From a virus (taxonomy: Duplodnaviria; Heunggongvirae; Uroviricota; Caudoviricetes): a stretch of 43,233 nucleotides of DNA. This document shows, piece by piece, positions 9,623 through 30,837 of this stretch (positions are counted from its first letter, which is position 1; every line of letters begins with the position of its first letter). Made by a program: the position numbers and the translations under genes. The notes under the pieces are model-generated. The model saw only the letters and a list, made by a program, of their open reading frames with translations. It was not told where the DNA came from and did not search any database. The stretch lies in IMG/VR virus record IMGVR_UViG_2516143027_000009; one strand, 5' to 3'.

Positions 9623-9694
9623 GTGGACGAAACAAAAGTCAGTGCTACACTCATTGACGCCACATTGAGGTGGCTTATAGATGGAAATTTCACA

Positions 9695-9856: not shown

Positions 9857-9879
9857 AAACAAGGCCGCGAAAGCGGCCT
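9855..9879 (-). terminator. Rho-independent terminator of the ant transcript
   Basis: On the minus strand: hairpin AGGCCGC-TTTC-GCGGCCT followed by TGTTTTT. Confidence 0.55.
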
Positions 9880-9905
9880 GTGACATGTCACGCTAGTTTC
9901 GTTTT

Positions 9906-10160
9906 GCACGTCCCTGTGCCGCCGTTCTGTCAGAAGAACCCTGCCTTGTCGTTGATGTATTCCGCGTGCGTCTGGATATCACGCAGGCATTTGCTCACAC
10001 CAACGATGTAGCAGAACATGGTGGTCAGCTCCGCCGCCGCGCCCGATACATCGTGCCCGTCTTCCTGTAACTGGTTCAGCAGATTCATCAGCAGTGAGTT
10101 CTCCGTCAGGCCGAGAACACCCGACGGCGAATGAATCAGACTGCGGTAGCCTGGCTTCAA
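9906..10160 (-). repeat. Copy B (inverted) of the ~260-bp repeat
   Basis: Reverse complement matches copies A and C, including the post-stop segment. Confidence 0.8.
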
Positions 10161-10868
10161 TGGATAACCATAACATTTTGTCTGTGTTTTAATTGCCTCA
10201 CGAAGCGCATCTAACATCTTGACTGCCACTTCATCATTCTCTGATGCAGATCCAGCAGGGAGATACTCCCCTTCAAGCGGAACCCGAGCAACAAGAGACA
10301 ACGCTTCGGCAAATTGATCTTCACCAATTTCTTTGTACGAACAGCCAAAATGAGATTTCAGTGACGACCACATGGTGATCATCGCCTTAGCCTGTTTTTC
10401 TTTTGGCAGAGACTGACCGCGACTCATGACGAGTTGTTTAATGGCTTCCTGCTGTTCAGTTGTTATTTTACCCGGCAACGCCTTTTTAGCTTTGCGTGGG
10501 TTAACCACATGGCCTTTAGTCCAGTACTCGTAGAGCACATCGTCACACTCTTCCTGATACTGGATTACCTTGTCGCGGATTTCAGGGCGGACTTTGTTAG
10601 GGCTGATGCTGTTCAACCAAGCTGCCAATTTTCGTAAAGCCATACAAATCATGGCTTGCACCCCACCGGCAGAAGGTATGGTGATTTCCACCATACCCTT
10701 CGAGAAGCGTTGAGAAATCTTCTTATGTTGAGATTTCCAGTCTAGCCCCATTCCCTCAACGATAGGTTTCATTGGGGTATACGGTTCGCCGTTGTGATTG
10801 ACAACATAAAGCTCTGCGCCGTGGAATGGCACGTTGATAGTAGATACTGCTGTTGCTATACTCGTCAT
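9930..10868 (-). CDS. ant: Antirepressor Ant-like protein (P22 Ant N-terminal-like domain plus shared C-terminal module)
   Basis: N-terminal FHGAELYVVNHNGEPYTPMKPIVEGMGLDWKSQ resembles the P22 antirepressor N-domain (from memory); located downstream of an Arc-like gene with a divergent Mnt-like gene, as in P22 immI. Confidence 0.65.
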   Translation of the reverse strand: MTSIATAVSTINVPFHGAELYVVNHNGEPYTPMKPIVEGMGLDWKSQHKKISQRFSKGMVEITIPSAGGVQAMICMALRKLAAWLNSISPNKVRPEIRDKVIQYQEECDDVLYEYWTKGHVVNPRKAKKALPGKITTEQQEAIKQLVMSRGQSLPKEKQAKAMITMWSSLKSHFGCSYKEIGEDQFAEALSLVARVPLEGEYLPAGSASENDEVAVKMLDALREAIKTQTKCYGYPLKPGYRSLIHSPSGVLGLTENSLLMNLLNQLQEDGHDVSGAAAELTTMFCYIVGVSKCLRDIQTHAEYINDKAGFF

Positions 10869-10942
10869 GTCGTTAATTCCTATACGTAGTTTTACGATAC
10901 TGAAGCCCTGACGGTCTGGCCACCGTGGGGCTTCGCTGTTTT
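10869..10942 (+). ncRNA. Candidate sar-like antisense RNA (antisense to the ant RBS and arc 3' end)
   Basis: Plus-strand promoter TTGATA-17 bp-TATACT at 10834..10862 inside the ant 5' end; hairpin 10902..10934 followed by a T-rich tract gives a predicted transcript of about 70 nt. Confidence 0.4.
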
Positions 10943-11108
10943 ATGCCACGCTATTCTTCTCACCAGTGAGTCCATACACTTTCCTCAGCTGATAGATAAT
11001 CTCTGTATTGAACTTTCGGCATTCTTTTTCGCCATTTCTTTCAATAGCTAACTTCACATCGTCCGGAAAACGAACTCGTCGTTGACACATCTCTTTTGCT
11101 TTTTGCAT
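10941..11108 (-). CDS. arc: Arc-like ribbon-helix-helix repressor
   Basis: 55 aa from ATG 11108 with RBS AAGGAG; motif RVRFPDDVKLAIERNGEKECRKFNTEIIYQL matches the Arc/Mnt RHH pattern. Confidence 0.65.
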   Translation of the reverse strand: MQKAKEMCQRRVRFPDDVKLAIERNGEKECRKFNTEIIYQLRKVYGLTGEKNSVA

Positions 11109-11228
11109 TTCATATCTCCTTAGCCCCACCGTGGGGCAAAATAATTGTCACACCGTGCGTCATTGATGTCAAGCACACGGTGAGGCATACTTCAATCATT
11201 GCAAGTAACTCAATATTTGGTGAAGAAC

Positions 11229-11660
11229 ATGAGCAGAGAAGATCCACAACTAAGGATCAGACTTCCCGTCGAAGTAAAAGAAAAAATAGAAATTTCTGCA
11301 AAAGCCAATAAGCGATCAATGAACGCTGAAATAGTACAACGTCTTGACACCAGCTTTCTGAAAGATATTCATGAAGATGACGTAATTTCTGCTTATGAAG
11401 CAAAAATCATTGCAAACAATGCACGACATGAAATATCAAATATTATTTTCAAAAGAACCTTTAATGAAATTAATAAGAAAATAACACTTGGACATACAAG
11501 TTTTTATATAAACCTTAATGACCTTGAACTGGAATCACTTGCAGATAATGATTACCAGATCATCTTTGAAAAAACATTTAATAGGCTCAATGAACTAGGT
11601 TACATCATCTGTGAAAACTCATGGGATGCAGATGGTTTTGGAATTGAAATACCTGAATAG
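11229..11660 (+). CDS. mnt: Mnt-like ribbon-helix-helix repressor with a C-terminal extension
   Basis: N-terminus MSREDPQLRIRLPVEVKEKIEISAKANKRSMNAEIVQRL closely parallels P22 Mnt; divergent from arc-ant; AT-rich. Confidence 0.65.
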   Translation: MSREDPQLRIRLPVEVKEKIEISAKANKRSMNAEIVQRLDTSFLKDIHEDDVISAYEAKIIANNARHEISNIIFKRTFNEINKKITLGHTSFYINLNDLELESLADNDYQIIFEKTFNRLNELGYIICENSWDADGFGIEIPE

Positions 11661-11749
11661 GAAGAACAAAAGGCGTGTACATATTACACGTCTTTAATAC
11701 AATTGAAAAACGCCACATTACTGATGTATGTTACAACAAGGAGCGATAT

Positions 11750-12314
11750 TTTGAAAACCATATCTATATTAAAGGTTGCATTAGGCGTCGCTATTATTTT
11801 GACTCTCTCAATATTGTTTTATTTTTACCACAAACAAACTGCTATTGCTCTTGATAGTCACGCGGCAAACTCATTTTTCTCAGAGTACATAGTGCCGCTA
11901 TCAGGAAGCGGTATAACAAATAAATATACTGACTATGACATCAAATATGGAATTGATGATGGGGAGACTATTGTATTACATGTAATCATTAAAAACCTAA
12001 TGACAGTAAATAAAAATACAGACTTCAACGATAAAAATACAATACATCACAACAACAGCAAAACATTAATTTCTTATAGTAGCAACATCTATACGGATAA
12101 ATACCTAAAATACATATCAGAAGATACAATAAAAGAAACCCGCGAAAAGTTAAAAAACATATATTGTGCATCCGGCAGTTTTCACAAATTATCGCCGCAA
12201 GAGCGTTTATTCTACGAAGCAAGAAAACAACGTAAGTCAATAATATTACATTATTATGCTGATTCAGGGGAGACACTCATATTTAATATTGGGGTTTCCC
12301 CTGAATCATGCTAA
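11750..12314 (+). CDS. Single-pass membrane protein, candidate superinfection-exclusion protein (sieA-like position)
   Basis: AAGGAG RBS 7 nt before a TTG start (alternative starts ATG 11724 or TTG 11703); N-terminal TM helix; very AT-rich; lies between mnt and the ejection-protein genes. Confidence 0.5.
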
Positions 12315-12325
12315 AGGTGTTTAAC

Positions 12326-13438
12326 TCACCGCATCACCGGATCCACTTGGTTTATTAGTGGCGCAATCCAGAACAGGTTATTGCCGGGTATCAGGGTTCG
12401 GACATTATGCACAATACGATCACCGGCATCACCATTCAACACTCCTGAGGTCACATCAATGATGCTATCCGCAAGACCAAATGACGGTCCGAATAGAGAT
12501 CCTACGAATCCACGACTGGCATACCTGGACTGTGTGCCAGTGCCAAATAAAGCCCCCAGCCCAACAGCACCACCAGTCGCCTTTTCAGCCATGTTGTTAT
12601 ATTCCATCAATGGCCCAAGAATACCGGATCTATCTATACCCTCAAGCACCAGCTTCTCTGGTGACCAGTCAACATTTTTCCCTTTCGATGCTTCTTTAAG
12701 CGCATAGACCAGTGAGCCAAGAGCAATCTGAAATGCAGTGCCATAATAAAATTGCGCAGTTCCTTCCTGTAACCCACCAAGTAGCGCACGGTTGTATGAA
12801 GCCGTTGTGAATGATTTAAACTGAAATATCGTTCGCCCCATTGGAGTACTCGCCCATAAAGGTGTGTCACCAATACCGGGGGTGATGATAGTGTTATTAA
12901 CGTCTTTCAGAACCGCTGACTGGAATACTCCGGCAACGTACTGATCGTCCCATTTATCAAAGTTACCAATGTGCCATCCATCAATTACCTCACCATGTTT
13001 CTCGAACTCACTGCGAATACGCGCAGCCATATTGTCGTTGATACCGAGTTTTGCCATGCGACGTGCAGAAAACGCACCAGACAAAATACCGTCTGACGTG
13101 AGCATTCCGTTCATGGATTTGTTTATGTCATTAAATCGATCCATGAGTGTCAGCTTGCCGAAGGCATCAGTAATTCGCTCCATTCCTGCTTCGACTGCTG
13201 TTGTCCTGGAAGAACTGTCAACAAGATCACCAATTGCACGAGAACGTGAATGTAGTACAGTTTCCAATCCAATCCCCATCTTCAACATCTCTTCTTTGCT
13301 GGCCTTAAATGCCGGTGATTGGGATATCTGAGAAGCATAGCCTTTCATGGAGTTACGGAAACCATTAACCATAACCCCTCTGGCCAGATCTGGAATAGCT
13401 GATACTGTCATTCCACCGAGTTTGGTCGTGAAGTTCAC
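12326..13438 (-). CDS. Internal virion or ejection protein
   Basis: 370 aa, Gly/Ser-rich, last gene of the internal-protein cluster; position by analogy with T7-like gene order. Confidence 0.55.
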   Translation of the reverse strand: MNFTTKLGGMTVSAIPDLARGVMVNGFRNSMKGYASQISQSPAFKASKEEMLKMGIGLETVLHSRSRAIGDLVDSSSRTTAVEAGMERITDAFGKLTLMDRFNDINKSMNGMLTSDGILSGAFSARRMAKLGINDNMAARIRSEFEKHGEVIDGWHIGNFDKWDDQYVAGVFQSAVLKDVNNTIITPGIGDTPLWASTPMGRTIFQFKSFTTASYNRALLGGLQEGTAQFYYGTAFQIALGSLVYALKEASKGKNVDWSPEKLVLEGIDRSGILGPLMEYNNMAEKATGGAVGLGALFGTGTQSRYASRGFVGSLFGPSFGLADSIIDVTSGVLNGDAGDRIVHNVRTLIPGNNLFWIAPLINQVDPVMR

Positions 13439-15339
13439 ATCCCGCAGAAAAGCGCCAGCACGAACAAAAACGAAGACGGGTCATCAGGCATACCATATGT
13501 ACCAACAAGACGATCGCGTAATGCTGTTATGTCTCTGAGATCATTTGCTCTTGATTTTGAAAGTCTGGACTGTTCTTTCCGTAATTCCTTTTCGTACTTT
13601 CGCATTAATGAATCGAGTTTACCCTGAGGAACAACTTCACCATTGCTCTCATAACGTGCTTTCAGATTTGCCACACTTTCGTCATATTTCGCCTTTATTT
13701 TTTCAGGCACTTCCCGTAACAGACTGTCATATTCGTCCTCAATTAATTGCAGACGCTCTGTCATAGTTCGTTTGCCAAATGTTCTCGTCAACTCAATTTC
13801 TGCTGCCGCTTCACGGATATGACGTTGTAGAACGTAATTCACATCACTTTCGAGATAATCCCTGATAAGACTATCAGGCACATTTAATGTTCTTTCTTTC
13901 GTACTACCTGCGGCTTTTACAGAAAATACGCTGACAAAATCCTGTGGAACCTTAGCACCAGTAATTTTATTAATTACGATATCCGCTGCAATTTCAGCAT
14001 CCTCAGGATCCAGTGTTTTATTGCCTCTCGACCACCAGTCAACCAAAATACGTCGAAATTTATCGCGTTCACTGATTATTTTTCCAACTTTATATATACG
14101 TGGGAAATAGCTTGCCTGGCCTAATGCTTTCAGTTCTTCATCTGGCGGCAATAAACCAAGCTTTTGCATTTCAACCTTCACCCGATTTAATACAGTTCGC
14201 ATCGCCTGCGCCGTTTCCTGAACAACAGGATTAGCATGCACATCACCGCTTCGCATAGCATTCCCAACCTGCTGACGAAATGAATCAAAACTCATGTCAC
14301 CACCATCAGCTTTATACTTTGCGTATGCCTGTTTATTTCCGACAACAACAGCAGCTTCTTCACGCTGCCATCCACGTGTACGGGTTTCTACAGCTACCGG
14401 TGTTTCAATCCCCCTTTCATTTCCTTTAAGGGTGAAATTATTTTCGGCTAACTCCAGCGTTGTTTTTCGCACTGTCTTGGACGGAGACTCCATTAACCTT
14501 GTCAAAGGAGTAAGATAGCTCCCTGCTTTCCATGCAGCCTTTCCAACCACCCCACCGGAAACAGGGGTTAAATCATCCAGAGTCGCTGTATCAATTTTCA
14601 TAGCACCAACACTACCACCATCAGAAAGCGAAGCGGCAGCCCTGTCAGTCGCTGATGTAATGCTCATATTATCAAGAGCATCAGCAACCTCACGCGTGGC
14701 TGCAGCCCGGACGGATGGCGAAAGCGCAACACCAGCACTGGCAAACACGCCGCTCATCATCGCACCCGCTGCAATGTGAGCGGCACTTTCACCCCATGAG
14801 CGTGTTATTTGCTGATTATTCAGCACAACCTCGCTTAATGCTGTACCGGCTGCACCAATCGCAATCTGTGAGCCAATACGCGCCAGTGCCCCTCCTTGAG
14901 CACCGGGGATAAACATTGACGCAACAGTAACCGGATCCATTCCCGCAGCAATACTGGCAAGGGTTCCAACTACGCCAGCATCAGACAATAAACGTCTGTC
15001 TTCATTTTCATCATCTATCTGCTGCTTAATCCACGCCGTTTCCTCTGGCGATCGGGAATCTGCAAATTTCGCCCCCCAGTATTCATAACCGTGCAACTCA
15101 TTTTTATCAGCATATGGGTTATAACCTTCGACCGGTTCAAACTGTCTGGCTGGTCGGAAAAAACCAGCCAGAATATTGTTCTGTCGCATTGCAGCCCCCC
15201 ATACGGAAGGCTCCGGTGGCAATGGCTCAGGATTAGCCCCTTCCGGAAGGGCAACATCAAACCCAGTTTGTTCCGGCAAAACATTACCTGACGGGATCAG
15301 TCCGTTATTAAGATCTTCAGCTTGTGCATAAACTGGCAT
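13435..15339 (-). CDS. Internal virion or ejection protein
   Basis: 634 aa, contiguous with the neighbouring internal virion protein genes on the minus strand. Confidence 0.55.
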   Translation of the reverse strand: MPVYAQAEDLNNGLIPSGNVLPEQTGFDVALPEGANPEPLPPEPSVWGAAMRQNNILAGFFRPARQFEPVEGYNPYADKNELHGYEYWGAKFADSRSPEETAWIKQQIDDENEDRRLLSDAGVVGTLASIAAGMDPVTVASMFIPGAQGGALARIGSQIAIGAAGTALSEVVLNNQQITRSWGESAAHIAAGAMMSGVFASAGVALSPSVRAAATREVADALDNMSITSATDRAAASLSDGGSVGAMKIDTATLDDLTPVSGGVVGKAAWKAGSYLTPLTRLMESPSKTVRKTTLELAENNFTLKGNERGIETPVAVETRTRGWQREEAAVVVGNKQAYAKYKADGGDMSFDSFRQQVGNAMRSGDVHANPVVQETAQAMRTVLNRVKVEMQKLGLLPPDEELKALGQASYFPRIYKVGKIISERDKFRRILVDWWSRGNKTLDPEDAEIAADIVINKITGAKVPQDFVSVFSVKAAGSTKERTLNVPDSLIRDYLESDVNYVLQRHIREAAAEIELTRTFGKRTMTERLQLIEDEYDSLLREVPEKIKAKYDESVANLKARYESNGEVVPQGKLDSLMRKYEKELRKEQSRLSKSRANDLRDITALRDRLVGTYGMPDDPSSFLFVLALFCGM

Positions 15340-18056
15340 TATTTAGATCCCCACGAAAAGTAATCTTTAAATTTGTCCATACGTTCGTTATGCAGGCGCT
15401 GATACTGCTCATCCAGAGCGCGATGCTTGTCTTTGAAGTTTCGTATAGCCTGTCCACGCATAATTTCTTCCTGCTCGTACTGCTCCCGTTCCTGCTGCAT
15501 TTTCTTATAAGGTTCCCAATCTTCTAGTGATGGTTCCCAACGCATAGGACGCCCATGTTTGTTATAAAACGGCTGGACCCGATCGATGCCATTTTCATCC
15601 TTAGTTCTTACCATAATGGCGTAATCACCATTACGAGGTGTTAACACGTCAGGGGTTATGAATAATTCTCCATTAATACGACTCTCAGGGGTTTTTGTCT
15701 CAACTACAGGAGCATTACCTGACGTGATCCCAAGCAACGTCGGACTGGTTGTTATAATCTCTTTGCGCTCACCGTACATCAGCCGTTCTTTTTCAGCTTT
15801 CCACTGCGCCGCCTGCCAGCCTGACGGCCCATATTGATAAAGCGCCTCCGGTGCATATTTCATAAACTGCGCTTCTCCGTTAACCTCGCTGATACTCCAG
15901 GTGCGGGCTATCTGCTGGTTGGTCATTTGCTTCGCTACGTCAGCGTTACCACCAGCAACGCGGTAGTTAATGTCATACAGCGTCTGATAGTCATTACGGA
16001 ATCTAGCTGCTTCCGGCGTCTGGTCATCCGCAGACGGATCCCAACGGAACCACTGCGCCATATTGCTGACAGCAGAATTCATCGCCTTGCTGCGATTATT
16101 TTTGTACTCTTTTGAACTCTGCGTTGATGCCAATTGAGCTTTAAGAGCATCGGTCTGGTTGTACGTCAGGTTCTGCGCCTGCTCGATAGCCGCATCAGCA
16201 GACATGCCAGAATCTGTTAGTTGCTTAACAGTCAGATAAAAACCCTGCATATCCTTCGGCATATTTCCAATAGATGCATTGTCTGTTTCATATAACCGAC
16301 TAAACAAATTCGCTGCATTTTTAACCACTTCCTGATTGCTGGATCTGGATACTGCTGAAAGCTGCGTGATGACCTGCGAAGGCATGATGCCAGTCTGAGC
16401 CACAAGCCGAACAACCCCATCATGAGTGGAGGCATCATTAATACGAAAGTTCTGCGCCATTTCTGTGTAATCAGCAGCTTTCTGCATTGATTTGTTGCTT
16501 GGGTCTAATTTTTCACCTATTGTCAGCGCCTCATTGAATCTGCGTGAATCACGTTGCGCCTGAATTGCTTCATTTGATCGCTGAAGCAATGCAGACAATT
16601 TTCCGTAAGCATCGAGTTTTAACGCATAGTGAGGATCGTTAACCTCAGGCTTCACTTTCTGCATTTCTTCTTGCTGCTGAGAAGGAGGTAAATACTGAAT
16701 TGCCTGGAATATTCTCGCGTTATCAATCGCTATATCCAGTTGATTGATTATTTTATCTGCATTTTTTCCATACCCCCTGATGATAGTCTCCTGAGCCGGT
16801 ATATAATCTGGAACCTCACCGTTATATAGCTGGGCCATGGTGTTATTAATAGCTGGCTCAAGCTGTTCTAATATTAACTTCCTTTGCTTTTCTATCTGAC
16901 TATTAGCAAGGTTATCTATTTGATAAATAGTCAGCGGATCCATTCCAGTTTTATTTTTTCTATATCGGGAAAGCCACCCTTGTGTTTCTGATGGAAGATT
17001 TCGGATAAATTCTTCTTCTGATATTTCACCTTTACGTGGATCACCGACTTTGGCGATCAGTTTATCCACGTTACCCATCCCCCAGTTATATGCTGCTCCG
17101 GTCAATATTTCGGAGCCGTACTTACCATACAGTTGATTTACATAGTCACTGGCGAGCATTTCATGCTGTTGTTCGTCCGTAGGGTTGTATTTAACGCCAC
17201 GCTTGGCCGCCAGTTCTTTCCCTGTGCCCGGCATTAACTGGTATTTCCCCTGGGCTCTCTCTCCAGAAGATGTTATCGGTCCTTCAAGAAGACTACCATC
17301 AGGATTAAAATGTCGATCACCTGATTCAACAAGGCGTATGGCACGCATGTCCATGCCTCCAGAATCATTTTTCTGAAACAGACCATTTAGCCATCCTTCT
17401 GGATTGGCAGCGGCATAATTCTTCGCCCGCATTTCTGTGGCACGGCGATCATCACTTTCTATTTCTTCCAGAATGCGTTCTTGTGACCATCCCCTGGCAG
17501 CTCCATATCTAGCAATGGCTACCATTCTGGAATTTCTGGCTAAAGTGGCAGTTTGCGGGTCATTCCAGGCATCCGCTTCATTTTGTATCCATAATTTTCT
17601 CGTTGCCTGATATTGCTCATCTTCATAGGCATTTGTCTGCCCTATCTCATGTCTGAGAACTCCAGTACTGAACTGAATTTTCTGTGTTCTGGCTTGTTGC
17701 AAAAACATATTTCTTGCTGCTTCATCAGTCAATGAAGCAGCTATTTCTTCCACATCCTGATCAAATCCAGATATGTACTCTTGCCCCTTACCAATCGCAT
17801 TTTTGCCTTGTTGTGCATAAAAACCGGTTTGAGGGTTATAAAGACGTTCATTGCTGCGCTGATTAAGCTGAAGGATGGCATCCTGAGACAATGCAACATT
17901 CGCTTTCTGCCTGGCTTCACCATATGCCACCGCATACTGATCTGCGACATTCGCCAGCACCTGACCTGCTTGAGGAACATCGAAGATCTGAAAACCACCG
18001 GTTTGCACACCACGACTTTGCACCTGGCGTCCGGATGTAGTAGGAACAACAGGCAT
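15339..18056 (-). CDS. Internal virion protein with lytic transglycosylase (SLT-like) domain
   Basis: 905 aa; segment ESGDRHFNPDGS...GERAQGKYQLMPGTGKE resembles the SLT catalytic region; position equivalent to T7 gp15/gp16. Confidence 0.65.
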   Translation of the reverse strand: MPVVPTTSGRQVQSRGVQTGGFQIFDVPQAGQVLANVADQYAVAYGEARQKANVALSQDAILQLNQRSNERLYNPQTGFYAQQGKNAIGKGQEYISGFDQDVEEIAASLTDEAARNMFLQQARTQKIQFSTGVLRHEIGQTNAYEDEQYQATRKLWIQNEADAWNDPQTATLARNSRMVAIARYGAARGWSQERILEEIESDDRRATEMRAKNYAAANPEGWLNGLFQKNDSGGMDMRAIRLVESGDRHFNPDGSLLEGPITSSGERAQGKYQLMPGTGKELAAKRGVKYNPTDEQQHEMLASDYVNQLYGKYGSEILTGAAYNWGMGNVDKLIAKVGDPRKGEISEEEFIRNLPSETQGWLSRYRKNKTGMDPLTIYQIDNLANSQIEKQRKLILEQLEPAINNTMAQLYNGEVPDYIPAQETIIRGYGKNADKIINQLDIAIDNARIFQAIQYLPPSQQQEEMQKVKPEVNDPHYALKLDAYGKLSALLQRSNEAIQAQRDSRRFNEALTIGEKLDPSNKSMQKAADYTEMAQNFRINDASTHDGVVRLVAQTGIMPSQVITQLSAVSRSSNQEVVKNAANLFSRLYETDNASIGNMPKDMQGFYLTVKQLTDSGMSADAAIEQAQNLTYNQTDALKAQLASTQSSKEYKNNRSKAMNSAVSNMAQWFRWDPSADDQTPEAARFRNDYQTLYDINYRVAGGNADVAKQMTNQQIARTWSISEVNGEAQFMKYAPEALYQYGPSGWQAAQWKAEKERLMYGERKEIITTSPTLLGITSGNAPVVETKTPESRINGELFITPDVLTPRNGDYAIMVRTKDENGIDRVQPFYNKHGRPMRWEPSLEDWEPYKKMQQEREQYEQEEIMRGQAIRNFKDKHRALDEQYQRLHNERMDKFKDYFSWGSK

Positions 18057-22171: not shown

Positions 22172-22227
22172 AAGTTTCTATACTCCTGCAATAAAGGGGC
22201 CGAAGCCCCTTGTCTGATTCGCGAGGC

Positions 22228-22572: not shown

Positions 22573-22573
22573 C

Positions 22574-23011
22574 TTAACCAGTTACTTTTGAGCGGATCGG
22601 ATACGGCGTATTGGCATCAACATCAAGATTGATACCCGCAGTGAATTTGCCAGCCGTTAGTGGGCCAGTTGCGACGGAGTAGTTAACACGCAGATATCGC
22701 TGAACACCGGCTGGCACCTTTGCAGAAACAACTCGCTTACCTGCTGTCAGGGTGGCCTTTGCCAGTGCGCCACTATCATAAATAGTGGTCCATGAGCTGT
22801 TATTCTCACTCGTCTGCAACTGGATGTTTACAGTTGCCTCACCACTTGCCGTGGCGGCTTCGTTAACCAGCACCCAAAACTCAAGCGGGTAACCCACGCC
22901 GATATCACGACGTTTTCCGTCAATTGGACCGAGATCGATTACGTCAGTAGAAGCCGCGGTATTCGTAACCGCCTGAGCTTCGGAGAACATCAACAGTTTG
23001 TCGGTGATCAT
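22574..23011 (-). CDS. Hypothetical virion protein (possible capsid decoration or minor capsid protein)
   Basis: 145 aa, beta-rich composition, immediately downstream of the major capsid gene. Confidence 0.45.
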   Translation of the reverse strand: MITDKLLMFSEAQAVTNTAASTDVIDLGPIDGKRRDIGVGYPLEFWVLVNEAATASGEATVNIQLQTSENNSSWTTIYDSGALAKATLTAGKRVVSAKVPAGVQRYLRVNYSVATGPLTAGKFTAGINLDVDANTPYPIRSKVTG

Positions 23012-23062
23012 CTTCTTTCTCCATTAGTGGGTCTGTTACGACCCACAGGTTAATAACAGGCG

Positions 23063-24049
23063 TTACACCACGCGGGCTTCTGTTTCCAGAAGCGCATCAG
23101 TTTCACGGATTGGTACACCACGGAATGAAGTCCACCACTCGCCTTCAGTCTCTTTTACGCTGATAGCCAGAGATGTTTTCTCCAGAGACTGCAGATCAAG
23201 AGCCTGGCCTACAGTGCGGTTCATGTAGAACACCGGGCGGCCCATGCCACGGTTTGGAATGCGATGTAGTGCTTTAACCATCAACTTCGCAATATTTGCG
23301 GCAGAGGAAGGTTCTGAAAGATTGCTGACATCGATATTTGCAATGCGAACAACATAACGCCAGTCACGCAGAGAAAGTCCGTTATCCCATTTGTAATGGG
23401 TACGATAGCCTTCGTACTTGCCGCCATTAGCATCTTCCAGTGTCACCTGGCCTTTATCTTCCATCTGGATGCCAGCCTTCTGCCCTTTCGGGAAGATGCC
23501 ATGCACGGTGTTTTCGCCCCACACCACTAACCAGATTGAGGTGTTATCTGTACCCGTGCCACCAGCATCAATGATGTTCTGAGCATTACCCGCAGACAGG
23601 CTGGAATAGCGGGAGGACAGTCCCATAAACTGCTGAGGGTTAACGCTGGAATCACCATAAAACAGCGTCTGCGCCATCTGCTGATTCATCGCTTCAATAA
23701 ATGCGCGGTCTTCAGACAGGCGGAATTCGGCGGTATTGCCGTTCAGATCAGCCAGTGACTTATCGACTTCAGCATAGGTTTCCAACATACCAATGGAATC
23801 GGTGACCTGCACTGTGGTTGATTTGCTTGGTTGTACACCATAGTTCAACAAACGCCAGGTAGCTGAAGGTAAACCAGAACGAATGGTGGTTTTGTGTCCG
23901 GTAGGAAGGTTCCCTTCGACAAAAGGCATATCCTGAAGGATCGGGTTAGTTTGACCGAGAAGCTCGATAATCTTATCGACTTTCCCATCTTTATCGACGC
24001 GCTTACCCCAGTCAGCCAGCGTTAGCGCAGTTAAGCCTTTAACAGCCAT
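23063..24049 (-). CDS. Major capsid protein
   Basis: 328 aa; position after the scaffold gene; composition and size typical of podovirus major capsid proteins. Confidence 0.75.
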   Translation of the reverse strand: MAVKGLTALTLADWGKRVDKDGKVDKIIELLGQTNPILQDMPFVEGNLPTGHKTTIRSGLPSATWRLLNYGVQPSKSTTVQVTDSIGMLETYAEVDKSLADLNGNTAEFRLSEDRAFIEAMNQQMAQTLFYGDSSVNPQQFMGLSSRYSSLSAGNAQNIIDAGGTGTDNTSIWLVVWGENTVHGIFPKGQKAGIQMEDKGQVTLEDANGGKYEGYRTHYKWDNGLSLRDWRYVVRIANIDVSNLSEPSSAANIAKLMVKALHRIPNRGMGRPVFYMNRTVGQALDLQSLEKTSLAISVKETEGEWWTSFRGVPIRETDALLETEARVV

Positions 24050-24063
24050 TGTTATTTCCTCTC

Positions 24064-24765
24064 TTATTTGCCATAGAGCACTTCGGCCGCACTACGCTGG
24101 CCTTCATTACCACCGGTGACCATGCCATCCTCAGACATCGCCTTTCCGATTTTCACGAACGTTTTGACCAGATCAGGGTGATTACCCAGTCCGGTGGTGT
24201 TCAGATATTCTTTGAGTTCAGGTGTCCCGAACTGGTCAAGCGCACGCTGTGCGGCGCTAAGGTTAGAAATCAACTTGTCGCCACCGATTTCTTTGTCAGC
24301 TTTTACATCCGCAGCCCACTGCTCGGTTGTTTTCTGCCAGGCTTCTGCCTGGCGCTGCTGAACACCTGCCAGAATCTTCGGATAAGCATCAACCAGCTTT
24401 TGCGCTTGCTCGTTGGTCAGGTTAAGTTCTCGCGCCACCGGCTCGAATTCCTTCAACGCTTCTGTATCCAGCTCTACGCCTTCGGCTGCCTGAAACTCGT
24501 ACTTCTCAGGCGCACCCTCTGGTTTATCGCCGTCCTTTTTTTCATCCTGCTTATCGTTTTCAGGCTTTTTGTCATCAGCAGGTTTATCGCCATCAGCAAC
24601 AAGTTGTGGCTTATCACCTTCCTGTTGTGATGGATCACCAACTGGAGCAGGGTTATCACCTGCAGGCGCTGACGGTTCTGACGCAGCCGGAGCTGCTCCA
24701 CCATCGACTGGTTGCTCATTGCAAAGACGGCGATACAGCAAACGCTCAAATAAATTCATGATCAC
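24064..24765 (-). CDS. Scaffolding protein
   Basis: Acidic, Pro/Ala/Asp/Lys-rich disordered N-terminal half and helical C-terminal half; between portal and capsid genes. Confidence 0.6.
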   Translation of the reverse strand: MIMNLFERLLYRRLCNEQPVDGGAAPAASEPSAPAGDNPAPVGDPSQQEGDKPQLVADGDKPADDKKPENDKQDEKKDGDKPEGAPEKYEFQAAEGVELDTEALKEFEPVARELNLTNEQAQKLVDAYPKILAGVQQRQAEAWQKTTEQWAADVKADKEIGGDKLISNLSAAQRALDQFGTPELKEYLNTTGLGNHPDLVKTFVKIGKAMSEDGMVTGGNEGQRSAAEVLYGK

Positions 24766-25058
24766 TCCTGTTCACTGGCCTCTTTGGCCATCTTCAAATA
24801 CTGTTCAGGGCAATGCGCCATAACGCGCTGAAACAGTTCCAGCGCCAGATTGCGTTGCCCCTCATTAAATGCCATTGCCATAGCGTCCATCGGTGAGATA
24901 GCGGAAAACACACGGCCTTTCTCCAGCACCGACCAGACAACGCGACGCCCCTGTTCACTGCTCATGACAAAGCGAATGTCATCAATTTCACGCTGCGCCA
25001 TGTCACGTTGCTTACGGGCGTTTTCTTCTTTCAGTTGATCGTCTTCGTAATCTGTCAT
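24762..25058 (-). CDS. Hypothetical protein between portal and scaffold genes
   Basis: 98 aa, start and stop overlap the neighbouring genes. Confidence 0.45.
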   Translation of the reverse strand: MTDYEDDQLKEENARKQRDMAQREIDDIRFVMSSEQGRRVVWSVLEKGRVFSAISPMDAMAMAFNEGQRNLALELFQRVMAHCPEQYLKMAKEASEQE

Positions 25059-26734
25059 TGTGATTGCCCACCCTGACCACTAACTGCATTCGCCATAGCT
25101 GACAACACACTCGGATCCGAAGTTTTAGCTTCGCTTAGCGTCTTGGCCCCCTGTGCCGCCGCCATCCCCATCGCCATCATTTGTTGCTGCTGTTGCTGCT
25201 GTGCCCGTTGCTGGCGAGCCTGCTCAACCTGTTCCTGCGGAACAATGACGGTTGGAGACACTCCGGACATATCAGCGAATGCATCGATCGCCTGATCAAC
25301 GTTGAGTTTGTCGAGAGCTTCTGGTTTCGCTTGCGCAAGTTGACCAATGAAGTTAACCGTGGACGCCAGACTGGACAGGCCGATAGACTTCTGCGCCTGA
25401 GCCATGACGGAAATGTATTCGACCTTCAGGGGCATACCTTCCATCACGTCTGGCGGTGGCGGCAGCATGTTTTTACGCACCATCATCGAGAAAGAGCGGT
25501 CAATGAGAGGATTAAGACATTCGTCGTTCAGACGCTCCAGAACCGGCCCCAACATCAGAAGTTTTTCTTCTTTCATTTCGATCACCGCTTCAACAGGCAT
25601 CGAGCGGGTATTGATGTTCTGCAACATCATGAACAGATCGACAAAGTAGGCGCTGTTAATGATTTGACGAGTGTCCTGAATGTCTGCCACCAAATCTGCT
25701 GTACTGGGGTTAACCAGATAAGCAGGCCTGAAACCATCCTGACCAGTAATCTGATCGATATACGTGATGTCGCCAGGAAGAAGGGAGGCACGCTGATTCT
25801 TGAGGGAAGTCGGAGCAACCATCGGCGGATTGGTGGCTTTATCAATCAACTGCGACTTGCGCTTCTGGAGAAGCTGCAATGCCTTAACAGGTCCAAGCGC
25901 CAGCATACCCGGGCATGATGATCCATAAACATCTTCGCCGTTAACTTCCCAGCGCGGAGCCATAATTGGAAACTCATCGAATCCGGACTCACGCAACAAC
26001 TTGTCGTTATCGCCACAAACCTCGTAATAAACCGATTTGAATGGCTTGTTCTTGCTATCCAGCTTCGATGTATCGCGGTCAATGTTCGGGTAAACCGAAT
26101 GCATCACTTCAATCCACTTCTCGTAGGTTCCGCTTTCCCACATGCTTTTTACGGATTCGCTGACGTTATTTAGCCCGAACTCCTGAACAAGCTGACGAAC
26201 AGTCATAGAGAACTTGCGAAAACAGGTGTCCACACTGCCACGAGGTGAGTTAGCCAGGTAGTAACTGCCTATCGGGAATGGCATTGTGCGAATGATGTCC
26301 TCGTCATCCTCCAGCACCGCCATTGCACCAGTGCTGTATGTGCCGAGGCTTCCGTATAACTGCGGCAGCGACTGATAGAGATTCGACTTATTGAACATAT
26401 CGTTCATGCGGTTCTGCACCGCCTCAAGCCACAACTTAACAGGGCCATAATCCATCATTTCAGGATCTGGCGTAGCCAGGCGAAACCACGGACGCGCGGG
26501 GCTTGTGATGCCTGACATCATGCCGCTGGCGAGAGTGCGCGCCGCCATAGTCCCGGTCGAATCAATAATGCGTGTATTGCGTCGATCGTTACGGTTGACC
26601 TCAGAAGTCAGAAAGCGGGAACCACGCGGGTTGATGTAATCACTCAACTCGCGCCAGTGCGGCTCGAACGACTGACGCTCGCTTTCAAATTGTGCGAACT
26701 GTTTGTTCAATCGCTCTTTAGTTGTTTCCGCCAT
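25055..26734 (-). CDS. Portal protein
   Basis: 559 aa; position after terL; Gln/Ala-rich C-terminal tail. Confidence 0.75.
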   Translation of the reverse strand: MAETTKERLNKQFAQFESERQSFEPHWRELSDYINPRGSRFLTSEVNRNDRRNTRIIDSTGTMAARTLASGMMSGITSPARPWFRLATPDPEMMDYGPVKLWLEAVQNRMNDMFNKSNLYQSLPQLYGSLGTYSTGAMAVLEDDEDIIRTMPFPIGSYYLANSPRGSVDTCFRKFSMTVRQLVQEFGLNNVSESVKSMWESGTYEKWIEVMHSVYPNIDRDTSKLDSKNKPFKSVYYEVCGDNDKLLRESGFDEFPIMAPRWEVNGEDVYGSSCPGMLALGPVKALQLLQKRKSQLIDKATNPPMVAPTSLKNQRASLLPGDITYIDQITGQDGFRPAYLVNPSTADLVADIQDTRQIINSAYFVDLFMMLQNINTRSMPVEAVIEMKEEKLLMLGPVLERLNDECLNPLIDRSFSMMVRKNMLPPPPDVMEGMPLKVEYISVMAQAQKSIGLSSLASTVNFIGQLAQAKPEALDKLNVDQAIDAFADMSGVSPTVIVPQEQVEQARQQRAQQQQQQQMMAMGMAAAQGAKTLSEAKTSDPSVLSAMANAVSGQGGQSQ

Positions 26735-26748
26735 TTCAATGACTCCGG

Positions 26749-26955
26749 TTACTGACCAAGCAGCGTTTTACCGCTGGTATTAGCGGTTGATGTGTCGCCC
26801 TGAGAACCGGTAAGCAGCGTAGAACTACGACCAGCAGCAGCGCGACGGCGACGAGTTTCTTCGTCGCGGGCATCAACAACGGCGGCATCCTGCTCCTGTG
26901 GTGCTGCCTGAACTTCTGGTGTTGCAGGCACTGATGGTGAGCTACCCATGCACAT
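26749..26955 (-). CDS. Small hypothetical protein upstream of portal
   Basis: 68 aa with a plausible GGAG RBS; low-complexity, weak support. Confidence 0.3.
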   Translation of the reverse strand: MCMGSSPSVPATPEVQAAPQEQDAAVVDARDEETRRRRAAAGRSSTLLTGSQGDTSTANTSGKTLLGQ

Positions 26956-27045
26956 ATCAATGACTCCGTACGCAATTAAATCATTACCAATTTAACCACA
27001 TATGATTTATTTATCGTAGATGATTGACATTTAACGCACGAATTA

Positions 27046-27060
27046 TTACCTTTCAGGTAA
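27046..27060. promoter_or_regulatory. Operator-like palindrome TTACC-TTTCA-GGTAA (copy 5), next to a TTGACA hexamer
   Basis: Identical to copy 1; TTGACA at 27023..27028; lies between the portal operon start and the structured region and tRNA. Confidence 0.5.
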
Positions 27061-27382
27061 GTAAAGGATTCATTCCGGTTACTAACCTGACTGGCTTGTC
27101 GTTAAATTGAACAGGTGGAGTGAGCTTTTATTTTGAGCAGTACGGCGTATGGCACATGCGCCGATAGCGGTCTGGATACGTTTAAGGGGCACCCTCCCTT
27201 GCTCGGGCAAACGAACCAGGTAGCCGGAATGTGCAAGTCGAGCGGTTTTATTCCGCGCACGGGGATTCACCATCCCGGCGATTCGGTGTGACGCCTCGGA
27301 AGAGACGAGGGTACAACGATGAGAGCATTTATGGAGCCGCGACAAAGTGTGGCGCCTTAACAGGCTAAGTGCTCTCAGCGTT

Positions 27383-27459
27383 GTGGCATTAGCTCAGTTG
27401 GACAGAGCAACCGCCTTCTAAGCGGTTGGTCGCAGGTTCGAATCCTGCATGCCACGCCA
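27383..27459 (+). tRNA. tRNA-Arg (anticodon UCU), phage-encoded
   Basis: Cloverleaf by eye: acceptor GTGGCAT/ATGCCAC, D-arm GCTC-AGTTGGAC-AGAGC, anticodon stem ACCGC/GCGGT with loop CTTCTAA, T-arm GCAGG-TTCGAAT-CCTGC, discriminator G and encoded CCA. Confidence 0.85.
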
Positions 27460-27503
27460 GAATCACGCCTAAGGACCGTGATGCCAGAAGTTCCAGGTGC
27501 TTG

Positions 27504-27546
27504 GCGGTGATGGTTTCCCTTGAAGGACTATCACCGCCCTTTTTAC
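27504..27546 (+). terminator. Rho-independent terminator downstream of the tRNA
   Basis: Long hairpin GGCGGTGAT...ATCACCGCC followed by CTTTTT. Confidence 0.5.
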
Positions 27547-27619
27547 AGCAGGACGCCATTGCGATGACTTCATGCTGTAAACCAGTACAGCCACGGAAGG
27601 CATAACTCATTGCTTCCAG

Positions 27620-27642
27620 TTCGCCCGGTTCGCCGGGCATTT
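27620..27642 (+). terminator. Hairpin plus T-tract immediately upstream of the 27657 gene RBS
   Basis: GCCCGG-TTCG-CCGGGC followed by T6, then the RBS AAGGTGAG. Confidence 0.45.
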
Positions 27643-27656
27643 TTTAAGGTGAGATC

Positions 27657-28079
27657 ATGAAGACAATTGATATGTTGGCTAAGTATCTAAATGAATGGCC
27701 ATTAAAATATTCTCGTATCGTTCAGGCTGAAGACTGCATTTTTTATGGCGTTTTTGCTGGTAATGAAATGCATTACGAAGTAATTCAGAGTGAGGGACTG
27801 GCCGGGTTAACTCTTAGCGAAGACCATGGTACTAGCGTTACGTACCATGACTGGATTTCAGCGCAGAAAACTGAAATGGAAAAAGGCAATGTGTTTGATA
27901 TTTCTCGCGCTGTATACGCCAAAGAAAAAAGTGATGATGATTACATGCGCGAAAACTTATACAACATGAAGTTACAATGCCTGGCTGAAGTGCTTAGTAA
28001 AAGATCTTTACTTGATGTGGTTGGTGCTGAGCAGGACGCCAAGGCAATCAACGCCGCATTCGATAAAATAACCTTCTAA
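27657..28079 (+). CDS. Hypothetical acidic protein encoded opposite to the late operon (accessory gene)
   Basis: RBS AAGGTGAG; 140 aa; low GC; own terminator; plus strand while the flanking portal and terL are on the minus strand. Confidence 0.6.
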   Translation: MKTIDMLAKYLNEWPLKYSRIVQAEDCIFYGVFAGNEMHYEVIQSEGLAGLTLSEDHGTSVTYHDWISAQKTEMEKGNVFDISRAVYAKEKSDDDYMRENLYNMKLQCLAEVLSKRSLLDVVGAEQDAKAINAAFDKITF

Positions 28080-28100
28080 CGCCGTGACATGTCACAATCA

Positions 28101-28125
28101 GCCCGCCGATTCGCGGGCTTTTTTA
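28101..28125 (+). terminator. Rho-independent terminator of the 27657 gene
   Basis: Hairpin GCCCGC-CGATTC-GCGGGC followed by T7; overlaps the terL stop. Confidence 0.6.
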
Positions 28126-29598
28126 TGCAAAAGGATCATAGTCTGTGATGGCTTTGCCTTGCTGGTTCTGCTGCCCGGGAATTCGCAGACGCTTCGACAC
28201 AGGGAACGCAAACGTCAGCAGTAGCGCATCGCCTTTACCAGGAGAACGCCCAAGTCGCTCTTTGATATCTTCCTTCGGTTCGATAACGATTTTACCGTCC
28301 ACGCGAACTTTGTACTCTGCCGTCGACAGGTCGTCCGCTGTTTCCTGGTCATCCAGCATGCCGCCGAGCCTCAGCCATGTCTTGCATGAGTTGAACATCT
28401 CCCCACGCTTGTTGAGCATCTGCGGGTCAGTAGACGCGCCACCGAACGGAACAAGTTGCCATGTACGACCCCAGCCGTCACCGATTGACTTCAAACCGGT
28501 TCCGTAACCGAAGTCGATGAACACCGCGTCAGCCTGATACTGGTCTTCAAAGTCAGCGATACGCTTCGCCATAATCAGATCGTCGGTAGTCTTGTTGCCA
28601 GTCCACAGCACCTTACTGTGTAGCCCCTGCCGCAGGTATATCACCGCGTCATCAACGCCGGAGTATGCCGGGTCAACGCCGATTATCACCGGAGCATGTG
28701 CCACCTGCGCAGCGGTTACCACCCGTTTCATTGCCTCGTCAGTAAGACCGGTAGGGATAAACTGCAATTCAGATGCATCAGGGAATATGCCGCGCACACG
28801 GATTTTAACGAAGTCGCTGTCTTCCCCGTAGTCATCAACCCATTTCTGCAACTGCTGTTTGTTAGTGCCTTCCACCGTTCGGCTGTCAATCTGCGCAGTT
28901 TTCCAGCGGTGTTTATATTTGCGGAAACATTCGCGGAAACGTCCGGTATTACGCGTCGGGTTTCCGAACGCCACCCAGATAATCTCAGTGTCTTCGTCCG
29001 TTAGTGCACCCTCGGCAACTTCCCACACCAGATCCGCAATGTTCGACGCTTCATCGAATACCACGATGATGCGTTTGCGCTCGTTGTGTAGTCCGGCGAA
29101 TGCCTCAGTGTTGTGCTCAGACCAGGGGATTGCGTCAGCTCGCCACCGCTTGTCGTGTCCAGGATCATTGCTGTACATCGCGGTAGCGGTACAGGTAAAC
29201 CAGTCTTTCGTGATAGCAAGGTTCGACCACTTGATAATTTCCGGCCAGGTCTTCGTTCGTAGCTGGTTGTCGGTGTTGGCGGTCACCACAACCTTACAAT
29301 CCTCGCAAGTGGACATGCCCCAGTTGATCAGCATTGAGATGAATGCGGATTTACCAATACCGTGACCAGAAGCGCGTGCCAGCATAAGCGGCTGATAACG
29401 CGTCTCTGGATTCTGCAGGTGATCACGTATCTCTCGGAACGCATCGGCCTGCCACTGACGTGGACCGGTAGCATGTGCCAGTTCAGTCCCCTCTTCCCCC
29501 CAAGGGAACGCATAGAGGGCATAGCCAAGCGGATCGTGAGTGAACCCTGCAATATCTTCGATTAACTGCTCTTCAGGAGATAACGCTGCATCTGTCAC
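28123..29598 (-). CDS. terL: Terminase large subunit
   Basis: 491 aa; Walker A-like ARASGHGIGKS ATPase motif near the N-terminus; position after terS. Confidence 0.8.
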   Translation of the reverse strand: MTDAALSPEEQLIEDIAGFTHDPLGYALYAFPWGEEGTELAHATGPRQWQADAFREIRDHLQNPETRYQPLMLARASGHGIGKSAFISMLINWGMSTCEDCKVVVTANTDNQLRTKTWPEIIKWSNLAITKDWFTCTATAMYSNDPGHDKRWRADAIPWSEHNTEAFAGLHNERKRIIVVFDEASNIADLVWEVAEGALTDEDTEIIWVAFGNPTRNTGRFRECFRKYKHRWKTAQIDSRTVEGTNKQQLQKWVDDYGEDSDFVKIRVRGIFPDASELQFIPTGLTDEAMKRVVTAAQVAHAPVIIGVDPAYSGVDDAVIYLRQGLHSKVLWTGNKTTDDLIMAKRIADFEDQYQADAVFIDFGYGTGLKSIGDGWGRTWQLVPFGGASTDPQMLNKRGEMFNSCKTWLRLGGMLDDQETADDLSTAEYKVRVDGKIVIEPKEDIKERLGRSPGKGDALLLTFAFPVSKRLRIPGQQNQQGKAITDYDPFA

Positions 29599-30191
29599 TG
29601 ATTGCCATCCTGACGTTCTTTCAGTCTCTTCCTGGCTGCCGCTATGCGATCAGCAATTGTCACATTCACATTAACATCCAGGCGTTCTTTGAATGCATTG
29701 ACATCGACGTGCTTACCAATCAGTTCGAGGTTCTTCACCTTGTCAGGCCATTTAATTTTTTTGAGGATTGTCTCTATCGAATCCTCGTCCATGTTCATGA
29801 TGGTCGATGACAGATCAAAGCCGCTAAGCGTAGTGCGCCAGATTTTCGGCCACTCGCGGATTGGCTTAAGGCTCCCATCGTCGTTGAGGATATCAATCAC
29901 GTCCATCTGGTCGATCTCCACCAGGCGCATGAGAACGTAATCAGCACTGACGCGCATTCGTTTGTTGCGCTCCTCCATCAACTCGGCAATCCGTTTCTGA
30001 ATGCGTTCATCGCGCATCATGACACTGGCTTTAACTGCCGCTGTATTTGGGGAGAATCCTGCATTAATCGCAGCCTGAGTCTGATTTTCAGGCGTTTTGA
30101 TGTATGACTGGCAATAAGCCTCCTGCATTGCTGTTAGTGGCTTAAATTGCGTTGATTTGCGTTTATAGGTTTTAGGTTCAGCAGGCATCAT
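29595..30191 (-). CDS. terS: Terminase small subunit
   Basis: Region AMQEAYCQSYIKTPENQTQAAINAGFSPNTAAVKAS resembles the small terminase DNA-binding domain; start moved to internal Met pair with GGTGG RBS (the ORF extends to 30269). Confidence 0.65.
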   Translation of the reverse strand: MMPAEPKTYKRKSTQFKPLTAMQEAYCQSYIKTPENQTQAAINAGFSPNTAAVKASVMMRDERIQKRIAELMEERNKRMRVSADYVLMRLVEIDQMDVIDILNDDGSLKPIREWPKIWRTTLSGFDLSSTIMNMDEDSIETILKKIKWPDKVKNLELIGKHVDVNAFKERLDVNVNVTIADRIAAARKRLKERQDGNQ

Positions 30192-30196
30192 AACCA

Positions 30197-30230
30197 CCAT
30201 GGTAATAGTTACCGTTGTGGTAATAGTACC
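30197..30230. repeat. Tandem GGTAATAGT(T)ACC repeats directly upstream of terS
   Basis: CCATGGTAATAGTTACC-GTTGT-GGTAATAGTACCATG; half-sites related to the operator but in the opposite arrangement. Confidence 0.5.
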
Positions 30231-30233
30231 ATG

Positions 30234-30260
30234 CAAAATAAAGCCGCCATAGTTGGCGGC
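30234..30260 (-). terminator. Intrinsic terminator between the 30266..30478 gene and terS
   Basis: Minus-strand hairpin GCCGCC-AACTAT-GGCGGC followed by TTTATTTTG. Confidence 0.45.
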
Positions 30261-30265
30261 AGTAT

Positions 30266-30478
30266 TCAAAGTCCATCAAATTCATCGTAAAAACTCTCGT
30301 CAAGATACCCTTCCCATTTACCGCGAATGAAAATTACATCCTCGCCGCAAGGGTGCTGACTGTCGATAACTATATCCCTCCTGGCGCAACCATACTTATG
30401 CATGAGAAATTTAACCTCTTTCGGAAAATTTGCTGAGTTATCTCTCATATCTTCAAGGTCGTAGCGTATTTTTGGCAT
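30266..30478 (-). CDS. Hypothetical small protein
   Basis: 70 aa from Met MPKIRYD with RBS GAAGGTG; the ORF track's upstream extension starts at a GTG inside the palindrome. Confidence 0.5.
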   Translation of the reverse strand: MPKIRYDLEDMRDNSANFPKEVKFLMHKYGCARRDIVIDSQHPCGEDVIFIRGKWEGYLDESFYDEFDGL

Positions 30479-30495
30479 AACACCTTCGTGACATG

Positions 30496-30837
30496 TCACA
30501 CTATTAATTTCGTTTCATGCCAGCCTTTAGTCACCCAGCATTGCGAGTCACCATTACACGGGCATGAATTAACGGGAACTCTCTCGCCGCACTTACCGCA
30601 AAGTTTTCTGCTGATCGATTTTATACGCCCGCGCACACGTGCATCATCCTGGCGGATCAGCAGCGCGATGTACTCGGCCATTTCATAGGGATCGTGACCA
30701 GGGCGCCGGGCGGCGCAGTTCCGCGCCAGCATTTCCTGCTCCTGCTTATCCAGCACCAGTTCAATTTTGCGCTCACCGGCGGCGGACTGCCGAGCGCGCT
30801 GCGCGGCTTTGCGCTCTGCTGCTGATTTAGCCATCAA
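30496..30837 (-). CDS. Small basic protein with C-terminal zinc-finger-like cysteine cluster (possible regulator)
   Basis: 113 aa; Arg/Ala-rich N-terminus; CGKCG...CPCNGDSQC cluster; located just upstream of the packaging genes. Confidence 0.5.
   Translation of the reverse strand: MMAKSAAERKAAQRARQSAAGERKIELVLDKQEQEMLARNCAARRPGHDPYEMAEYIALLIRQDDARVRGRIKSISRKLCGKCGERVPVNSCPCNGDSQCWVTKGWHETKLIV

Follow-up and report, generated by a model that had tools for sequence, protein, structure and literature searches.

A 12-bp palindrome repeated at gene ends and mosaic joints of epsilon15-like phages is a candidate recognition site of the p55 protein family

The stretch of DNA analysed here (the window, 43,233 nucleotides (nt); IMG/VR virus record IMGVR_UViG_2516143027_000009) belongs to an epsilon15/phiV10/TL-2011b-like temperate podophage of Escherichia coli, genus Uetakevirus. 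Its late genes lie on the - strand in the order p55 (the name that we gave to gene 30496..30837 after its phiV10 homologue), a gene of 70 amino acids (aa), a terminator (30262..30243), the terminase genes terS and terL, an antisense cargo region, the portal and structural genes, and the arc/ant/sar module. A sequence-only reading of this DNA had drawn attention to a perfect 12-bp palindrome, GTGACATGTCAC, said to occur in three exact copies, more than expected by chance. An exact search confirmed all three, at 9880..9891, 28084..28095 and 30488..30499 (copies 1, 2 and 3), and none of 100 dinucleotide-preserving shuffles of the window contained any copy. Searching the window for GTGAC-N(0-8)-GTCAC returned the same three sites only, and allowing two mismatches added one site, which is not significant. 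When copy 1 is read on the - strand, the flanking base on each side is also common to all copies, giving the 14-mer CGTGACATGTCACA.

Copy 1 has on its outer side the stop (9930) of the antirepressor gene ant, a cargo gene (9930..10868, - strand; Pfam P22_AR_N, E=5.9e-45), and on its other side it touches the stem of an intrinsic terminator (AGGCCGCTTTCGCGGCCT followed by TGTTTTT; 9862..9879, - strand). This terminator ends the ant/late-direction transcript and is conserved together with the palindrome in relatives; a 77-aa gene (phrog_3117; 9623..9856, + strand) forms the backbone side. Copy 2 lies 4 nt past the stop of a 140-aa cargo ('moron') gene with no assigned function (phrog_4846; 27657..28079, + strand), which is antisense to the late operon, and 4 nt ahead of the terminator of that gene (AGCCCGCCGATTCGCGGGCT followed by TTTTTT; 28100..28119, + strand). 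The backbone side is here terL, the large terminase subunit gene (28123..29598, - strand). The places of copies 1 and 2 are both filled in epsilon15 and phiV10. Copy 3 gives p55 (- strand, 112 aa from the ATG at 30834) its TGA stop and ends 9 nt ahead of the ATG of the 70-aa gene (phrog_1541; 30266..30478, - strand), which extends from copy 3 to the terminator ahead of terS. That terminator (GCCGCCAACTATGGCGGC followed by TTTATTTT; 30243..30262, - strand) lies just upstream of an ATG near 30231, probably the true start of the small terminase subunit gene terS (open reading frame (ORF) as listed 29595..30269, - strand; Pfam Terminase_2, E=1.4e-29), and its hairpin also follows the p55 stop in phiV10 and epsilon15. 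The earlier description of these contexts, with two copies between a stop codon and a terminator hairpin and the third overlapping the p55 stop and preceding the 70-aa gene upstream of terS, was therefore correct in every part. No sigma-70-like promoter was found at the three window copies.

Counting the 12-mer in related phages, we observed that epsilon15, whose conserved genes have about 80% DNA identity to the window, holds three exact copies at the same three places: behind gp50 (an antisense cargo gene), at the gp18 end directly ahead of a terminator, and at the stop of gp49, its p55 gene. In phiV10 there are two exact copies, plus a one-mismatch form, GTGACATGTTAC, at the p55 stop. The epsilon15 record, in which repressor, IHF and RNase III sites are annotated, does not mark the palindrome.

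We then looked at the surroundings of copies 1 and 2 in two samples picked without reference to the motif, 80 viral contigs anchored on TerL (98-100% identity) and 80 contigs anchored on the 77-aa gene next to copy 1. In the TerL sample, the exact 12-mer follows the terminator downstream of terL in about 60 of the 80 contigs and a one-base variant in six; the remainder have a different insert, with neither terminator nor palindrome. In the other sample, 69 of 80 contigs have the exact 12-mer, one has a variant and ten have none. The shared side consists in both samples of the anchoring gene plus the terminator hairpin. On the other side, starting 0-4 nt past the palindrome, we observed at least six unrelated cargo sequences at copy 2 and at least seven unrelated sequences at copy 1, and several of the abutting cargo genes take their stop from the TGA within the palindrome. 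The palindrome is a sharp mosaic boundary, the junction of conserved and exchangeable segments. The recombination signal suggested by the sequence-only reading stands in this descriptive sense.

The palindrome is a property of the backbone and not of the cargo. Its import by cargo genes was ruled out: neither Sf6 gene 66, which is homologous to the phiV10 cargo gene, nor P22 ant has the palindrome behind it, and a terminator follows each. Neither Sf6 nor P22, which both lack p55, contains any exact or one-mismatch copy genome-wide, and the palindrome was not found in the annotated boundary sequence bsq1 of CUS-3, between ant and the tailspike gene. In more distant epsilon15-like phages (50-69% protein identity) an exact copy occupies a fourth position (L031:1568, L059:9430, L073:3545) within the structural operon, where it comes 9 nt past the stop of the gene homologous to window gene 22574..23011 and has no obvious terminator. 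The coincidence with mosaic joints may reflect a recombination anchor formed by the shared 12 bp and terminator, or gaps that tolerate both a site and cargo; breakpoint position alone fits both a recombination hotspot and a selected site beside a tolerant slot.

The distribution of the motif in other phages points to the p55 gene. A scan of viral contigs with the 14-mer gave 120 stretches, and in 47 of them the site is at the stop codon of a p55 homologue. The remaining intergenic occurrences are all in epsilon15-like phages; exact matches in a Q protein (MRDMSQ...), in a tail-fibre gene and in GTGAC-iteron regions were taken as coding or unrelated coincidences. Among the epsilon15-like loci with enough flanking DNA, p55 is present in 77 of 77, with the palindrome at its stop in 73. 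We also assembled a sample by protein only, 65 species-representative bacterial genomes with p55 homologues of 40-86% identity, and inspected the interval from -25 to +40 around the p55 stop. GTGAC-N2-GTCAC is there in 41 loci, as the exact 12-mer in 29 and with another centre (AC, CT, GT, AG or GC) in 12, for a chance expectation of about 5e-5 per locus; two further loci have a one-base change in an arm. Since the position of the site relative to the stop takes six registers (30 loci use it for the TGA, nine have it 5-9 nt past the stop and two just inside the gene), coding constraint does not explain it. Throughout 391 kb of p55 loci the N2 spacing was found 54 times, and N1, N3 and N4 spacings not once. 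The centre can be AT, AC, CT, GT, AG or GC, and the arms are invariant.

The neighbours of p55 and its site differ among the carriers. In epsilon15-like prophages the pair is ahead of terS and terL. In lambdoid prophages it belongs to the nin region, where a DnaB-like or a methyltransferase gene precedes it and ninB...Q follow (for example gp22 of Pectobacterium phage ZF40), and in P2-like prophages, such as Yersinia phages, it comes after the gpA replicase gene, next to portal and terminase genes on the other strand. In a Vibrio siphophage with a p55 homologue of only 34% identity, 36 kb contain three GTGAC-N2-GTCAC sites, where about 0.04 would be expected. Taken together, these occurrences indicate that the site is linked to the p55 gene, and that the gene and the copy at its 3' end travel together among unrelated temperate phages. 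What follows the p55-stop site varies by locus: a ribosome-binding site in the window, elsewhere a cargo promoter, a LexA-box-like sequence or a terminator. The LexA-box-like sequence is an observation in its own right. Four Serratia/Symbiopectobacterium prophages without the palindrome (L220, L224, L225 and L228) have ACTGTTTTTATATACAG just after the p55 stop, which fits the LexA-box pattern CTGT-N8-ACAG and suggests that the gene downstream may be under SOS control.

A further phage group (L355-L434) has the 12-mer within a 151-aa CII-like gene (for example L053:6515-6526), where it codes for R-D-M-S. In 80 such loci chosen by protein (61-100% identity, 68 distinct gene sequences), the 12-mer is kept in 74. 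We observed that Arg128 is CGT in 68 of 68 sequences, Ser131 TCA in 67 of 67 and Asp129 GAC in 65 of 68, and that each of ten other conserved Arg positions of the same gene uses four to six synonymous codons. These codons show that the site is under selection at the nucleotide level. About 5 kb upstream, most of the loci have another exact copy, beside a small ORF in the vicinity of an integrase gene; in L026, the only locus inspected in this respect, a terminator is followed after 3 nt by the site and then, 13 nt on, by an ATG. In 46 of the 80 loci a p55 homologue (49-59% identity) is encoded 2.5-6 kb downstream of the CII-like gene.

The p55 family is large, with searches returning 775 and 913 protein clusters, and it is found in phages of Escherichia, Salmonella, Klebsiella, Pantoea, Xenorhabdus, Yersinia and Vibrio. 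In PHROGs, p55 falls into phrog_536, labelled 'transcriptional regulator'; the epsilon15 annotation describes gp49 as similar to N15 gp46, and a literature search on N15 gp46 found no functional study. A first AlphaFold2 model, built on a shallow alignment (78-97% identity), had a predicted local distance difference test (pLDDT) score of 61. With homologues of 33-70% identity added, giving an alignment of 93 sequences, the final model reached a pLDDT of 86. It consists of a basic, Arg-rich N-terminal helix (5-18), an extended segment (22-28), two helices (30-42 and 52-74) and a Cys-rich domain with two invariant cysteines (Cys79 and Cys82) and two nearly invariant ones (Cys91 and Cys99). In this model residues ~20-70 match ribbon-helix-helix DNA binders, MatP included; a Foldseek search of the model against PDB and BFVD gave no useful match. 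We infer from the model that p55 is a dimeric ribbon-helix-helix DNA-binding protein. An HNH endonuclease role, considered from the position of p55 beside terS, was rejected: there is no HNH motif, and the single conserved His is replaced in several homologues.

On balance, and with modest confidence, we favour the reading that GTGACATGTCAC is one form of a duplex element, GTGAC-N2-GTCAC, which is most likely the recognition site of p55, that gene and site move together, and that the sites also serve as mosaic joints. A p55 dimer would bind the element symmetrically, one subunit per GTGAC arm; this symmetric-dimer view of duplex DNA is drawn from the invariant arms and the free centre. The p55 gene and the site at its own 3' end move as a pair between unrelated temperate phages, and epsilon15-like phages have two or more extra copies where the late region has its few non-coding gaps. 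Since the same 12 bp and adjoining terminator are kept there throughout the group, these sites are also the joints of backbone and exchangeable accessory genes. We hold more weakly that bound p55 might insulate transcription units or form a DNA barrier at their 3' borders, an idea which comes from the sites sitting 0-4 nt upstream of terminators at convergent transcription-unit ends in epsilon15-like phages. The sequence-only reading had already mentioned the adjacent protein as a possible binder; this gains from the motif following the gene family into at least three unrelated phage architectures, and it is this co-occurrence that points to binding.

Several observations weigh against recognition by p55. 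Sequence and profile searches of Pfam, NCBIfam and PDB gave p55 no match to any characterised protein. An intact GTGAC-N2-GTCAC near the stop codon is missing in 24 of the 65 p55 loci, the group with the site in the CII-like gene has its p55 homologue without a site at the stop, and the L026 element has two sites and no p55 within 14 kb. Every epsilon15-like locus examined contains p55, so that the group offers no natural p55-less control. No recognisable promoter lies around the sites, either at the three window copies or in the inspected loci of the protein-only sample, and the tight association with terminators is confined to epsilon15-like phages; a terminator within 130 nt after the p55-stop site was found in 18 of 41 site-bearing loci versus 6 of 24 loci without the site. 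A host protein of the same specificity may be the binder instead.

A bolder extension, which we think rather unlikely, would make p55 and GTGAC-N2-GTCAC a two-part system: tight complexes, acting as replication or transcription barriers or as MatP-like bridges, would create preferred break-and-join sites for the swap of accessory genes. If true, the long-debated 'linker' mechanism of phage mosaicism would here have a dedicated form guided by a protein. A weaker variant of this extension would make p55 the late-gene antiterminator of epsilon15-like phages.

Among the competing explanations, the one that survives best, although we judge it improbable, is that the palindrome is purely a linker or boundary sequence, a short homology patch for recombination between phages, or else the site of a host factor such as MatP, and that the p55 stop is one more module boundary. 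The breakpoints lie exactly at the palindrome edges in both motif-blind samples, and RecE/RecT-type recombinases are annotated in these phages; yet 12 bp is very short for recombinase-driven exchange. Descent of a linker alone would leave unexplained both the frozen synonymous codons of the CII-like gene and the retention of the site, at six registers, beside p55 genes down to 40% identity. L026, with its sites and no p55 gene in its 14 kb, fits this rival. So do the arms of the palindrome, which are the same as those of matS, the 13-bp MatP site GTGACRNYGTCAC, GTGAC-RNY-GTCAC with a 3-bp spacer (PMC6907758). However, the phage sites have a spacer of 2 throughout, not the 3 of matS (54 N2 against 0 N3 sites in the 391 kb, all window copies being N2), so that we rejected the palindrome as matS itself, and Sf6 and P22 infect MatP-bearing hosts yet have no copy.

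It is doubtful that an antitermination or termination factor loads at the palindrome, with p55 as a Q-like protein through which RNA polymerase would read through, or stop at, the next terminator, and which would fill the place of the missing late regulator of epsilon15-like phages. The order p55, site, terminator, terS in phiV10 and epsilon15 parallels Q, qut and tR', and copies 1 and 2 sit 0-4 nt upstream of terminators. In addition, the late transcript must, judging from the maps, extend beyond the terminator that follows the last structural gene if it is to include the tail-fibre and lysis genes, and the Arg-rich N-terminal helix of p55 would suit such a role. Against this, the loci share no conserved promoter or -10-like pause element around the site, the terminator counts given above are low, and in the window the p55-stop site is directly followed by a ribosome-binding site. 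Copy 2 is ahead of the terminator of the antisense cargo gene and not of the late operon; in lambdoid and P2-like carriers the genes around p55 are accessory ones, and lambdoid carriers encode a Q of their own. A palindrome placed in a promoter spacer, as in the Q binding element, was rejected too: weak -35/-10 matches occur in a few loci (phiV10-type TTAATA-17-TAGATT; L212 TTAGCG-16-TATAAT) without a consistent pattern. A literature search on epsilon15/phiV10 late regulation found nothing relevant.

We regard as very unlikely an RNA-level element of the 3' untranslated region, that is a small hairpin for processing, stability or help in termination, and with it the processing site that had been proposed. 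Two copies do lie between a stop codon and a terminator hairpin, and the minimum-energy fold of the copy 2 context has a separate 4-bp hairpin. But the hairpin of the 12-mer, at -1.2 kcal/mol, is no better than in shuffles and the fold differs in the three contexts, a stem of 5 bp cannot sterically close on a loop of 2 nt, and the arms are invariant without covariation. The site also stands inside a gene and ahead of start codons. None of the copies matches an Rfam family, the five Rfam hits of the window all being away from the palindromes. An intrinsic terminator was discarded on the same folding energy and the lack of a T run, the true terminators being separate adjacent hairpins.

Least credible is a pac recognition or cleavage signal of the adjacent terminase, the packaging signal of the sequence-only reading: copies 2 and 3 flank terS-terL (the same pair is 2.2-2.6 kb apart in other genera) and the Vibrio phage has a site 19 nt upstream of terS, but each genome has three copies, more distant relatives use a fourth position as well, the lambdoid gene and site are in the nin region with different terminases or none nearby, and the published phiV10 and epsilon15 records begin at gene boundaries, not at mapped ends.

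Some further features of the window and of its relatives were recorded along the way. Between p55 and terS, phiV10 has a mini-ORF, MHDEFDGF*, made of a start codon and the last seven codons of the 70-aa gene of the window (which ends ...YDEFDGL*), and which on this comparison appears to be a deletion remnant of that gene. In prophages of four species (L206:4057-6336, also L226, L242 and L252), TerL has an in-frame insertion of ~320 aa directly after the Walker A motif (GHGIGK|ALRPDD...VTHN|S), with LAGLIDADG-like blocks inside; it resembles an intein that carries a homing endonuclease. A tRNA-Arg gene (anticodon TCT; 27383..27459, + strand) is present between terL and the portal gene, in the antisense cargo region, overlapping a listed 83-aa ORF (27389..27640, - strand), the counterpart of phiV10 p04. 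Rfam models matched isrK (7875..7951) and C4 antisense RNA (7976..8059) upstream of gene 8093..8818, an arrangement which we take to resemble P1 immI, and also sar RNA (10870..10937), antisense to the start of ant. Because the products of 8093..8818, 9930..10868 and 41299..41949 gave tblastn matches on overlapping stretches of related loci, the phage probably carries two or three antirepressor-type modules, each under its own antisense RNA. Near the integrase end of the window, 41169..41258 matches sRNA-Xcc1 with 64.8 bits (gathering score 53).

Neither the p55 family (phrog_536; epsilon15 gp49, phiV10 p55, N15 gp46-like) nor the motif has an assigned function, and a text search of 8 million papers for the 12-mer string did not find it. 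If p55 binds the site, the two would be a new and widespread regulator/site pair. Moreover, a selected 12-bp element exactly at mosaic joints provides a concrete case for an old question, whether such joints form at specific conserved sequences or at random with later selection.

The closest known counterpart of the site is the MatP/matS system of the E. coli Ter macrodomain, with the same arms and a spacer of 3 bp in matS against 2 bp in the phage site. The palindrome is phage-borne and absent from p55-less phages (Sf6, P22) of the same hosts. MatP has a four-helix bundle and a coiled coil, which the p55 model lacks, showing instead a Cys-rich C-terminal domain; hhalign of the p55 profile against an approximate MatP sequence was not significant. 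The near-identity to matS nevertheless raises the question of whether a phage protein might also touch the Ter macrodomain sites of the host.

As a joint between modules, the palindrome recalls the linkers that Susskind and Botstein are said to have proposed for phage modules and the boundary sequences of lambdoid phages that Clark et al. (2001) reportedly described with HK620. Like those of Sf6 and CUS-3 (bsq1-7), it is short, conserved and placed precisely at the junctions of interchangeable modules. The bsq features measure 30-480 bp and each is unique in its own genome, whereas the palindrome is a perfect 12 bp, is repeated within a genome, is selected even inside a coding region and is tied to one protein gene. 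Compared with lambda Q/qut/tR', a regulator gene is likewise followed at once by a DNA site and then by a terminator ahead of the late genes; unlike in lambda, the site has no promoter or pause element, p55 resembles no Q family, and the lambdoid carriers of p55 have a separate Q. Finally, the predicted fold of p55 residues ~20-70 and the short dyad-symmetric target are like those of ribbon-helix-helix repressors (P22 Arc and Mnt, CopG, the antitoxins KacA and TacA), to which p55 adds its Cys-rich domain. The operators of those repressors overlap promoters upstream of the regulated gene, whereas the palindrome occurs at the 3' end of the p55 gene, at the ends of other genes and, in one case, within a gene. 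As a kind, a palindrome paired with a small DNA-binding protein is familiar; the p55/site pair is undescribed, and its placement at gene 3' ends and within a gene is unusual.

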